Origin: a phage
Direction: 5' to 3' (one strand)
Length of the DNA stretch: 1,036 nucleotides
Sequence record: OR846502.1
Shown: one piece after another, positions 1 through 1,036 of the stretch
How positions within the stretch are numbered: position 1 is the first letter of the stretch
How the letters are laid out: the number at the start of each line of letters is the position of its first letter
Made by a program: the position numbers and the translations under genes
The notes under the pieces: generated by a model
What the model saw: only the letters and a program-made list of their open reading frames with translations
Told to the model about the DNA's origin: nothing
Database searches by the model: none

Positions 1-483
1 ATCGCTGCGGCTTTCCACGCGGGGTTTGAGTTCATCGCCCGGTTCAGGCTTTGGCTCCCGTTTTTTCACAGGCAAGTTCACCACAATACTTTCCCCGCGT
101 TCGGCCTCTTCTTTGAGAAGTGGAAGCCTGCCCGTCCAGTCCTCCTTCGGCTGAGGCTCAAACATGCCATTAAACAGCCGGGCCTCTTTCACATCCGCCA
201 GCGCCAGTTTGGTTGCGATAGTGCTTATCTGCATTTCGGAAAGCTCGCCAGCGCGGATCACACGAACACTGCGACGGCCGTTATCAACGATGTTTAATCG
301 TTCCAGTTCTGCCAGTTGCCTTTTGCCCAGATAAACAGGCGGCACATCATCCCACGCCCTTTTACCTTCGCTCTCGATCCAGTGCTGCACATGTGAATAG
401 GCATCTTCACCCGCAAAGATAATCGCCTCAGTAAATTTATCTTTCGGCAGAAATTTGATATTCGGGGCATTCTTCATCTTCAT
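1..483 (-). CDS. Hypothetical protein, N-terminal 161 codons (3' end beyond window start). Begins MKMKNAPNIKFLPKDKFTEAIIFAGEDAYSHVQHWIESEGKRAWDDVPP... and in-window part ends ...NLPVKKREPKPEPGDELKPRVESRSD
   Basis: Manual translation of the reverse complement of 1..483 gives an uninterrupted frame from the ATG at 483..481 to the window edge; each 60-nt block was checked against the plus strand. An SD-like AAGGTG (497..492 on the minus strand) sits 8 nt upstream of the ATG. The start overlaps the upstream stop (TGATG). Not in the ORF track because no stop codon falls inside the window. Confidence 0.8.
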   Translation of the reverse strand, partial: MKMKNAPNIKFLPKDKFTEAIIFAGEDAYSHVQHWIESEGKRAWDDVPPVYLGKRQLAELERLNIVDNGRRSVRVIRAGELSEMQISTIATKLALADVKEARLFNGMFEPQPKEDWTGRLPLLKEEAERGESIVVNLPVKKREPKPEPGDELKPRVESRSD

Positions 484-848
484 CAGTGCAACACCTTATT
501 GGACATATCCGCGCCCAGGTCTTCATGCAGGTACTCAAGGTGGCAGCTTTTCACTATCTGCAACCCCATTTCGTTAATATCGCCATCGTCGGTAAAGCAG
601 GTCAGCAGAATATCCCGCAAACGCCTTAACCCCTCATCGCGCCCGAATTCTTCAAAGCAGCCAAAAATCATATATTTCATCAATACGTTTTCAGTTACGC
701 GCGGCTCCAGCGTGAAGCGATAGCGGGCCATATACTTATCGCTTTCCACCAGCAAGGTTGCCGAACCGGTTTCCGCTATCTGGTGAGCAATACAGGTTTC
801 GGTCAGTTTGCGGAACAATGGGCCTATCACTTCAAAAATATCGGTCAT
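483..848 (-). CDS. Hypothetical small acidic protein, 121 aa, complete; function unknown
   Basis: ORF track entry 483..848 (-). The ATG at 848..846 is preceded on the minus strand by GGAGG (863..859) with a 10-nt spacer. The stop TGA (485..483) overlaps the start of the downstream gene. By my count the protein has about 21 D/E against 13 K/R, so net negative. I recognise no catalytic motif (no Walker A, no CxxC pairs). Confidence 0.8.
   Translation of the reverse strand: MTDIFEVIGPLFRKLTETCIAHQIAETGSATLLVESDKYMARYRFTLEPRVTENVLMKYMIFGCFEEFGRDEGLRRLRDILLTCFTDDGDINEMGLQIVKSCHLEYLHEDLGADMSNKVLH
492..497 (-). promoter_or_regulatory. Shine-Dalgarno-like sequence (AAGGTG) for the downstream gene starting at 483, embedded in the 3' end of the 121-aa gene
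   Basis: The plus strand reads cacctt at 492..497, which is AAGGTG on the minus strand, 8 nt upstream of the ATG at 483..481. Confidence 0.5.
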
Positions 849-1036
849 TGCGGGATACCTCCGCTCATCTGAAATTTGCCAAGTAATGGGTGATACCAGT
901 ACGCCGATCCATATTTGCGCTTCGCGCTGCGCAGAACCTGCCTCGCCACCTCTCTGAACTTGTTATCCGGCGCGATAAAGCCACCAGCTTTCATTCTGAC
1001 CAGCATCACGCCCGTGTTTTTTGCCAGCTCTTCGGC
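845..1036 (-). CDS. Hypothetical protein, C-terminal 63 codons only (5' end beyond window). In-window translation: AEELAKNTGVMLVRMKAGGFIAPDNKFREVARQVLRSAKRKYGSAYWYHPLLGKFQMSGGIPQ*
   Basis: Manual translation of the reverse complement of 845..1036: only one of the three minus-strand frames is open across the whole segment, the other two hit stops within about 30 codons. It ends at TGA (847..845), which overlaps the ATG of the next gene (848..846) in an ATGA arrangement. The tail is basic (about 11 K/R against 4 D/E). Not in the ORF track, presumably because it is truncated by the window edge. Internal ATGs exist, so a short ORF starting inside the window cannot be excluded. Confidence 0.6.
   Translation of the reverse strand, partial: AEELAKNTGVMLVRMKAGGFIAPDNKFREVARQVLRSAKRKYGSAYWYHPLLGKFQMSGGIPQ
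859..863 (-). promoter_or_regulatory. Shine-Dalgarno sequence (GGAGG) for the 121-aa gene, embedded in the 3' end of the upstream gene
   Basis: The plus strand reads cctcc at 859..863, which is GGAGG on the minus strand, 10 nt upstream of the ATG at 848..846. Confidence 0.6.

Follow-up and report, generated by a model that had tools for sequence, protein, structure and literature searches.

The window analysed here, a stretch of 1,036 nt from a phage record (OR846502.1), is coding at every base of its minus strand. It holds the last 63 codons of gene A with its TGA (845..1036; codons 1036..848, stop 847..845), the whole of gene B with 121 codons (483..848; ATG 848..846, stop TGA 485..483) and the first 161 codons of gene C (1..483; ATG 483..481), which runs off the end of the window. 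The longest ORFs on the plus strand reach at most 74 aa. A sequence-only reading of the same DNA had described overlapping stop and start codons at both junctions, ribosome-binding sites inside the preceding genes and an absence of non-coding DNA, and all of this holds. The stop of A and the start of B form ATGA (845..848) and the stop of B and the start of C form TGATG (481..485), both read directly from the minus strand; moreover, the RefSeq annotation of identical E. coli DNA has the same starts and stops for all three genes. A Shine-Dalgarno sequence for B, GGAGG (858..862, minus strand), lies within the Ser-Gly-Gly codons of A, 9 nt 5′ of the ATG, and its duplex with the 16S tail is worth -10.9 kcal/mol. 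The Shine-Dalgarno-like AAGGTG for C (492..497, minus strand) lies within gene B, 8 nt 5′ of the ATG (-6.4 kcal/mol), and a second in-frame ATG for C is found at 477..475 on the minus strand. Both junctions thus have the anatomy of a coupled pair, that is, a stop/start overlap with a Shine-Dalgarno in the upstream gene. They resemble the coupled overlapping genes of bacterial and phage operons in their 4-nt/1-nt overlaps and in the site of the Shine-Dalgarno, and at the level of sequence anatomy no structural difference was seen.

Both junctions recur in 6 related genomic loci. A search of IMG/VR gave 23 viral contigs of 14–19 kb that carry A and B together with packaging genes; the B/C junction is kept in 23/23 of these and the A/B junction is shown in 21/23, the other two (L058 and L059) having an N-terminally extended B, so that the junction scan read within the gene. 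The surroundings of AAGGTG at the B/C junction are conserved, with substitutions, across the related loci and the IMG/VR contigs. Moreover, GG(A/G)GG-N9-(A/G)TGA is found at the end of A in 26/26 distinct A genes from 26 different loci. Estimates of dN/dS are 0.03–0.07 for A, 0.11–0.20 for B and 0.04–0.07 for the start of C, and the reading frames of A, B and C are all under purifying selection. The junctions in the window are therefore real and selected, yet they are not unusual, since 9/17 co-directional junctions of the surrounding island overlap, 6 of the 9 being of the 4-nt or 1-nt type. They are the last two of five consecutive overlaps in a chain of six genes comprising an icd-like gene, two small ORFs, A, B and C, and overlapping stop and start codons in the window are routine operon compaction for such elements. 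Scanning the operon for sigma-70 promoters and for terminators gave no internal signal above background, and upstream of the icd-like gene the sigma-70 scan likewise gave no promoter above background. The overlapping chain and the scan of its interior are consistent with the co-transcription that had been proposed from the window. Rfam and tRNA scans gave no match within the window's region.

The window is 100% identical to DNA in two E. coli chromosomes, including that of E. coli 873.10, whose island spans 16.1 kb with yhdJ on one side and fis on the other. A 26-bp direct repeat stands at both ends of the island (10032 and 26117 of locus L001) and a tyrosine recombinase is encoded at L001 10269-11495, so the integrase and attachment-site flanks that were sought around the module are present. 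The annotated gene content comprises int, AlpA, a KilAC antirepressor, an Icd-like protein, a DUF927 replicase, HNH, TerS and TerL, together with head genes for a major capsid protein, an HK97 protease, a portal, a head closure protein and a head-tail connector. The AlpA protein, of 94 aa, matches PF05930 (Phage_AlpA) above the cut-off (E 2.4e-10), and the RNA motif int-alpA was also found in the island. Capsid and packaging genes, including the head-tail adaptor, TerS and TerL, stand in order in the annotation of L001 19189-25549, and Pfam families matching these genes are present in sister loci. At the level of annotation, no tail, holin or lysin gene lies in the 16.1 kb between the att repeats. 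It is because the island has capsid and packaging genes and no annotated tail or lysis genes that we assign it to the capsid-forming PICIs (cf-PICIs), a known kind of phage satellite, and by its gene set it is one. At gene level it has the integrase and AlpA at its left end, the replicase with an adjacent origin and the capsid and packaging genes of its own that characterise this class; the further characteristic, a length of ~15 kb with neither tail, holin nor lysin, is seen here by annotation over a span of 16.1 kb. This gene set agrees with the published definition of cf-PICIs (PMC10085698; bioRxiv 10.1101/2022.09.08.507074), and the earlier suggestion of a phage or mobile-element module is borne out insofar as the window lies in a phage-related island.

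Gene C was the one product that could be recognised readily, contrary to the sequence-only reading, which had found none of the three familiar. At full length it is a DUF927 protein of 711 aa (WP_046275058.1) that matches PF06048 (DUF927) with an E of 4.7e-50 and 171 bits against a cut-off of 22.6. Residues 269-608 match PDB 8tch, ‘Pathogenicity island protein’ (E 1.1e-13), and the protein matches the SCCmec Cch helicase model NF047345 at 42 bits, where the equivalog cut-off is 700 bits. Both PHROGs, through a match to PHROG 1139, and NCBI name it ‘DNA primase’, a name that goes without a detected primase domain of the Toprim/DnaG or archaeo-eukaryotic type: the whole protein matched no primase family in Pfam. 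On these profile matches gene C is predicted to be the DUF927 replication initiator/helicase of the satellite. Residues 1-161, the part encoded in the window, form a separate N-terminal domain that gave no Pfam or PDB sequence match at E up to 10 and that is also found fused to D5_N and AAA_25 helicases.

Directly 3′ of gene C lies an AT-rich origin with 11 exact copies of the iteron TGAACCAAC, confined to L001 17714-17990, a stretch of 65% AT. Each type of replicase is directly followed by iterons of its own. Two natural chimeras, the replicases of L039 and L051, are 98-100% identical to C in each 50-residue block of residues 1-600, fall to 52-58% identity over residues 601-700 and are followed by different iterons. 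Since the first 600 residues are shared and the iterons are not, iteron recognition probably lies in residues ~600-700 of C. The N-terminal domain was also considered as the iteron reader and was rejected on the same comparison.

The full gene A encodes 122 aa (WP_040194363.1; phrog_6610, a PHROG of unknown function). Its architecture is an N-terminal coiled coil followed by a domain that phage Rha/KilA-N regulators also have, in their C-terminal extension. Profile comparison of A with the C-terminal parts of Serratia phage BZS1 KilA-N and Edwardsiella phage EPP-1 Rha gave hhalign probabilities of 97.7-98.3% over residues ~21-117 of A, and both sides have the motifs G-x-IPPG-(M/W) and (Y)WYHP-x-LG-(K/R)-F. 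Unlike the phage Rha/KilA-N/Ant regulators, A has the coiled coil in place of their N-terminal DNA-binding domain (Rha or KilA-N). In phage D6 an Ant-type protein follows icd with a 1-nt overlap, which is reminiscent of the chain from the icd-like gene to A in the satellite. No Pfam, NCBIfam or PADLOC match to A was obtained at E up to 0.1, and searches of the PDB with the single sequence and the profile gave just weak GCN4-type coiled-coil noise. We rejected A as a Pfam ANT/KilAC antirepressor, given that it has no PF03374 profile match and that its profile reaches an hhalign probability of 0.5% with the KilAC protein of the island itself. AlphaFold modelled A too poorly (pLDDT 56) for a fold search, and the domain assignment rests on sequence profiles only. 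The coiled coil together with the Rha/KilA-N-type domain suggests a regulatory or protein-binding role for A.

Gene B encodes 121 aa (WP_001549749.1; phrog_7417, again a PHROG of unknown function) and is confidently predicted to fold as a helical bundle with one beta-hairpin. A fold search with this predicted structure found no known fold relative, single-sequence and profile searches of the PDB found no match, and neither Pfam, NCBIfam nor PADLOC gave a match at E up to 0.1. B belongs to a very small family, confined to Enterobacteriaceae, with 25 clusters out of 5.8 billion, and an exhaustive HMMER profile search of 1.84 billion representatives gave 8 matches. Only two of these 8 (P0146 and P0147) are clearly more distant and full-length, and they gave no functional lead. 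Identity of B across genera is 69-100%. As none of its homologues has a known function and its fold matched no other, any role proposed for B is a guess; the one we favour is that it modulates replication or the interaction with host or helper, independently of the class of replicase.

The company kept by gene A differs widely between loci. In the IMG/VR contigs, a relative of C is found on 22/23, of which 21 are full-length and one (L060) consists of the N-terminal domain only; the other contig, L055, has A and B followed by a DUF5906 replicase in place of C. In the 27 species-representative loci with A, B is found in 0/27 and a full-length relative of C in one only. A is adjoined either by B or by a helicase from one of three unrelated classes, the adjoining proteins matching AAA_25, D5_N/DUF5906/Pox_D5, DUF5906 only or DUF927. 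At L029, A is followed without B by a DUF927 replicase that is 81% identical to that of L001, where B is present. Likewise, L022 has A and then a DUF5906 replicase without B, and an 81% identical replicase is found in L055 with B. Comparison of these loci points to B being optional with two of the replicase classes and to the A-B-C trio not being a fixed unit. A restriction of B to the DUF927 replicase was considered and rejected, as L055 has B beside a DUF5906 replicase. Synteny in related genomes, which the sequence-only reading had named beforehand as what its proposal depended on, thus proved mixed: the junctions are kept, but A stands without B in 27 loci. By these comparisons, A appears to be a conserved core gene of the satellite lineage, its 3′ end, with the Shine-Dalgarno and (A/G)TGA, a fixed joint behind which replicase-plus-origin cassettes are swapped, and B an optional accessory cassette fitted exactly between the stop of A and the start of the replicase.

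We take the window to lie inside the early/replication operon of a cf-PICI of ~16.1 kb, with C as its replication initiator/helicase, at a probability of roughly 0.85. Several other accounts of the three genes were weighed against the same evidence. The multi-subunit complex with stoichiometric co-expression first proposed for this DNA would make A, B and C an obligate assembly, for example a helicase with two loader or accessory subunits, whose ratios are fixed by the overlaps. Both junctions are indeed tightly overlapped and conserved, and all 23 B-carrying viral contigs have A, and a relative of C is present on 22, in one case as the N-terminal domain only. However, the partners of A vary and B is optional: three unrelated helicase families follow A in the 27 species-representative loci, all without B, a DUF927 replicase 81% identical to C directly follows A at L029, also without B, and of the 81%-identical DUF5906 pair one has B (L055) and one does not (L022). 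The families are also of unequal size, with 417 clusters for A in the cluster search and 25 for B. We therefore do not support this proposal and regard an obligate complex as improbable. Still more so is a toxin-antitoxin or abortive-infection pair of A and B stabilising the island, which we consider the least credible of the accounts. Two overlapping small genes of ~120 aa in a mobile element would suit it, but no toxin, antitoxin or defence family was matched at E up to 0.1; A is without B in 27/27 species-representative loci, so the pair is not conserved; and both genes lie within a longer co-directional operon ending in a replicase and do not form an autoregulated two-gene unit.

A role for B, alone or with A, as conflict cargo made upon induction of the island (anti-defence, helper interference or host takeover) deserves more weight, and we hold it as a tentative, rather unlikely alternative. 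It would fit the presence/absence polymorphism of B at an exact gene boundary whatever the replicase class, the very small, Enterobacteriaceae-only family (25 clusters in 5.8 billion; 8 representatives in 1.84 billion), a dN/dS above that of the neighbouring genes (0.11-0.20) and the kinship of A with domains of antirepressor-type phage proteins. However, PADLOC, Pfam and NCBIfam gave no matches, a result that also leaves the defence cassette of the sequence-only reading without backing, and the purifying selection on B, 69-100% identical across genera, is unlike that of fast-diversifying arms-race genes. Moreover, published work (bioRxiv 10.1101/2025.02.11.637232) places the variable/immunity hotspots of cf-PICIs downstream of alpA and to either side of the packaging operon, and none in the interval from A to rep. 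Lastly, the phage-like capsid, portal and terminase genes, which NCBI names as phage proteins, could also belong to a defective prophage whose replication region is decaying. This we think very improbable, as the ~16-kb gene set recurs, intact, syntenic and with low dN/dS, in several genera and on 23 viral-fraction contigs, the att repeats are intact and accompanied by int, alpA and an iteron origin, and none of the tail, holin or lysin genes whose absence defines cf-PICIs (PMC10085698) is annotated.

Within an early/replication operon of a cf-PICI, expression might proceed as follows. A helper phage would switch on the AlpA-dependent programme of the island, by analogy with the prototype cf-PICI, for which a requirement for alpA has been published. 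The operon would then be read as a single mRNA, and ribosomes ending A would reinitiate at the ATG of B and those ending B at the ATG of C, each restart using the Shine-Dalgarno embedded in the upstream gene. Through such coupling the replicase would be made only within the early programme, and it would bind the iterons and replicate the excised island for packaging into its own capsids. A more speculative extension, which we judge unlikely, has A as a universal adaptor of this satellite lineage and B as a small effector with a new fold. As an adaptor, A may be the C-terminal domain of Rha/KilA-N proteins standing on its own and able to serve each of the three unrelated helicases; it might, for instance, bring a host or helper factor to the origin or lift the repression of the helper. 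As an effector, B may act on replication, host takeover or anti-defence and plug into the joint between the stop of A and the start of the replicase. If both were true, the end of A, with its Shine-Dalgarno and (A/G)TGA, would serve as a conserved ‘socket’ through which replication cassettes are exchanged as modules.

The type of element is already described and identical DNA is already in RefSeq. Judged from published descriptions, the island resembles the cf-PICIs EcCIEDL933, EcCIGN02175 and KpCIDSM30104 and the SatelliteFinder ‘cfPICI’ model in its size of ~16 kb, att repeats, int, alpA and primase-replicase slot, in its genes for capsid, protease, portal, head-tail adaptor/connector, HNH, TerS and TerL, and in having near-identical copies in several enterobacterial genera and in viromes. 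It differs in that its DUF927 replicase is preceded by A and B, which have no description in the cited cf-PICI literature. Similarities extend to the Rep-ori modules of SaPIs and PICIs: the helicase core of C is like that of SaPI Rep (PDB 8tch) and SCCmec Cch (NF047345), iterons stand immediately 3′ of rep, and rep and iterons are exchanged together. In contrast, gene C is larger (711 aa) with an extra 150-aa N-terminal domain, and the island has neither a separate pri gene nor a recognisable primase domain. What the present data add concerns the replication module. Gene A, unnamed but highly conserved, is always joined at an overlap to the satellite's own type of replicase, B is optional, comes from a very small family and has an orphan fold predicted with confidence, and the natural replicase chimeras point to the C-terminal ~100 residues for iteron specificity. 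The joint at A, the B cassette and the chimeras could together explain how replication modules are swapped with expression kept intact. We also note that ‘Klebsiella phage P12620-1’, a sparsely annotated record of 106 kb, contains part of the satellite at the end of the record.

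The gene junctions of the sequence-only reading proved exact when the minus strand was read again. Gene A enters the window at 1036 and stops with TGA (847..845), gene B runs from ATG (848..846) to TGA (485..483; 121 codons), and gene C begins with ATG (483..481) and leaves the window after 161 codons, all three as open reading frames on the minus strand. On that strand A and B overlap in ATGA (848..845) and B and C in TGATG (485..481). Both ribosome-binding sites lie within the preceding gene, as had been claimed: GGAGG (862..858, minus strand) in A, 9 nt ahead of the B ATG, and AAGGTG (497..492, minus strand) in B, 8 nt ahead of the C ATG. 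Moreover, the window is indeed free of non-coding DNA, the minus strand being coding at every base, and the longest plus-strand ORFs are at most 74 aa. These overlaps are ordinary; in the same island 9 of the 17 co-directional junctions overlap (873.10 annotation). The junctions are conserved between loci and belong to an overlapping chain of six genes, the last being the replicase.

The A-B-C trio is not a unit. When one genome per species was scanned, 27 loci spread over about 20 genera carried gene A, and gene B was absent from all 27. A full-length relative of C was present in only one of them (L029), where A runs straight into a DUF927 replicase that shares 81% identity with C, without B; another (L015) has just the N-terminal domain of C, carried on a D5_N-type replicase. 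The gene after A is a ~455-aa AAA_25 (RepA-like) helicase, a ~580-aa D5_N/DUF5906/Pox_D5 protein, a ~560-aa DUF5906 protein or a DUF927 protein. B is optional next to two replicase classes: locus L055 reads A, B, DUF5906 replicase, and L022 has its 81%-identical replicase straight after A. Identity between islands is a mosaic, gene by gene. Between L001, the E. coli 873.10 locus (NZ_CP061754.1) that contains DNA identical to the window, and locus L004, DNA identity is 74% in A, 86.5% in B and 97% at the start of C; between L001 and L002 it is 75%, 97% and 86%, respectively. All 26 distinct A genes, each from another locus, end in GG(A/G)GG-nine bases-(A/G)TGA, and similarity between these loci ends directly after the TGA. 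The picture is that A is a conserved early-operon gene whose 3′ end works as a fixed expression joint; replicase-plus-origin cassettes have been exchanged behind it, with or without B.

From the couplings obligate co-transcription had been deduced, and the architecture had been likened to that of multi-subunit complexes, toxin-antitoxin pairs and phage or mobile-element accessory, anti-defence or defence cassettes. The co-transcribed, mobile module stands, as an overlapping chain in a capsid-forming phage-inducible chromosomal island (cf-PICI); the readings as a complex, a toxin-antitoxin pair or a defence cassette do not. Synteny contradicts the idea that A, B and C form an obligate complex, since A occurs without B in 27/27 species-representative loci. 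No family match points to toxin-antitoxin or known defence functions, neither A nor B having one in Pfam, NCBIfam or PADLOC, and the A-B pair is not conserved; both results contradict such a system. B may be an accessory conflict gene, although we consider this less likely than not.

The suspected phage or mobile-element origin is borne out by the source locus. Two E. coli chromosomes, those of 873.10 and KCJ3K291, contain the window at 100% identity, and six further E. coli genomes match it at 88-95% identity (5,426 complete genomes searched). In 873.10 it lies in an island of 16.1 kb inserted between yhdJ and fis, carrying an integrase and bounded by a 26-bp direct repeat, TCCCCATGCCGAGTAGCGCCTTTTTA (L001 10032-10057 and 26117-26142), presumably attL and attR. 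The left part encodes, in order, the integrase, DUF6387, a 94-aa AlpA-family regulator (PF05930) and an AntA/KilAC antirepressor, followed by a divergent YlcI/YnfO gene and the early operon: an Icd-like gene, two small ORFs, A (122 aa), B (121 aa) and C (711 aa, DUF927). Two small ORFs separate C from the packaging part, which comprises major capsid, HK97 protease, portal, head closure, head-tail connector, HNH, TerS, TerL and DUF3892. An int-alpA RNA motif (Rfam RF02996; 57.6 bits, E 6.5e-10) lies between the integrase and DUF6387 genes (L001 11504-11570). No tail, holin or lysin genes are annotated in the island. SatelliteFinder defines cf-PICIs by eleven core components and treats tails and holins as forbidden (PMC10085698); the defining gene set is the same as that of the island and also agrees with the founding paper (bioRxiv 10.1101/2022.09.08.507074). 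The island therefore belongs to a satellite type that has been described before, and annotated sequence identical to it is publicly available. The 16-kb gene set is intact, under selection and widely shared, without annotated tail or lysis genes, which contradicts the reading as a decaying prophage. Other assemblies have sister islands of the same gene order at a different site, adjoining gcd, and such an island also occurs in 23 IMG/VR viral contigs of 14-19 kb. This agrees with the report of near-identical cf-PICIs spread over enterobacterial genera and present in viromes (bioRxiv 10.1101/2025.02.11.637232).

Gene A matches PHROG 6610, a family without assigned function, and its own family comprises 417 clusters at 90% identity, in Enterobacterales only. 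Purifying selection on the gene is strong (dN/dS 0.03-0.07). Its predicted structure is of low quality (pLDDT 56) and shows a long N-terminal helix and then a small alpha/beta domain. Homology was traced by tblastn against phage genomes and then by profile comparison (hhalign). Residues ~21-117 are homologous to the C-terminal extension behind the DNA-binding domain of the Serratia phage BZS1 KilA-N protein, the Edwardsiella phage EPP-1 Rha protein (probability 97.7-98.3%, E 1e-12 to 1e-14) and, more weakly, of phage D6 Ant, with the motifs IPPG and WYHPxLG(K/R)F in common. Gene A is thus a free-standing copy of a domain that elsewhere forms part of phage regulators of the antirepressor type; a role as regulator or adaptor is purely hypothetical. 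Pfam search and profile comparison ruled out the Pfam ANT/KilAC domain. In the P1-like phage D6 (L035 932-2088) the icd and ant genes share a single base, and the domain resembling gene A is part of Ant; in the satellite, the chain from the icd-like gene to A looks like a split version of this immunity-region arrangement. P1 is a reported helper of a related cf-PICI (bioRxiv 10.1101/2025.02.11.637232).

Gene B belongs to an ORFan-like family: it matched only 25 clusters among 5.8 billion proteins, each at least 69% identical to the query, and searching 1.84 billion representatives exhaustively with a profile gave only 8 matches. B is a real gene (dN/dS 0.11-0.20), and its model is confident (pLDDT 89, pTM 0.81): a helical bundle with one beta-hairpin. 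B might hypothetically be an optional modulator or effector. In an Enterobacterales MAG (L020 13346-14280) a second 121-aa ORF lies 3′ of the replicase, followed with a 1-nt overlap by a 189-aa ORF; jackhmmer ruled out the former as a B homologue.

Full-length C matches Pfam DUF927 (E 4.7e-50) and PHROG 1139 'DNA primase' (E 2e-183), its residues 269-608 match 8tch, a solved structure named 'Pathogenicity island protein' (E 1e-13), and the SCCmec Cch helicase model matches more weakly. The 'primase' label is a name by database match and seems best treated as unverified, since no primase domain was detected in C. Window positions 1-483 encode residues 1-161, a separate N-terminal domain without a match in Pfam or PDB sequences. 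Its relatives (P0160, P0172, P0177; L015 2193-2603; L060 4225-4665), 50-70% identical, are fused to D5_N (PF08706), AAA_25 (PF13481) and DUF927 proteins; the domain is a shuffled module. Directly after the C stop lies a 65% AT stretch (L001 17690-18030), in which 11 exact copies and one near copy of the iteron TGAACCAAC occur in both orientations (17714-17990); none was found elsewhere in the 31-kb locus. This region is the presumed replication origin, and C with its iterons has the classic Rep-plus-iteron layout of PICIs. Each other replicase type behind A has its own iteron set at the same position. Replicases of two IMG/VR contigs (L039 and L051) are 98-100% identical to C (L001 15554-17689) in all 50-residue blocks of 1-600 and 52-58% identical over 601-700, and their iteron is TAACCCAC, unlike the TGAACCAAC of L001; L029 has the same iteron as these contigs and a similarly divergent segment. 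These natural chimeras place iteron specificity in the C-terminal ~100 residues of the replicase. We regard such by-products (the conserved 3′ joint of A, the optional B with its orphan fold, the shuffled N-terminal domain of C and this mapping) as small leads, not discoveries.

We propose that a helper phage would trigger AlpA-dependent induction, giving one early transcript; a requirement for alpA has been published for EcCIEDL933 (bioRxiv 10.1101/2022.09.08.507074). Termination-reinitiation at both overlaps would mean that replicase is made only along with the remaining early programme. Its C-terminal region may then bind the iterons, and the excised island would be replicated for packaging.

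Lastly, A-bearing islands occur as pairs, ~20 kb apart on the same contig, in Pantoea dispersa S68 (L021 and L023) and in MAG SMAGNO137 (L024 and L026); within each pair the replicase classes differ (AAA_25 and D5_N-type), and they look like tandem satellites. Between gcd and hpt in E. coli 1368KP and EC09 (L002 and L003) the left arm is the same (int, alpA, antirepressor, icd-like, A, B, DUF927 replicase, same iterons) and is followed not by capsid or terminase genes but by a PerC-family regulator, a pRiA4b ORF-3-like protein and many hypotheticals; these may be a different satellite type or cargo islands with a shared replication arm. Two GenBank 'phage' records, the unannotated 3-kb 'Salmonella phage' fragment OR851044.1 (3,185 bp) and the terminal part of the 106-kb 'Klebsiella phage' record PQ569648.1 (93-106.5 kb; L061), match the satellite at 99-100% protein identity and probably represent DNA of the satellite or a host that was submitted under a phage name.
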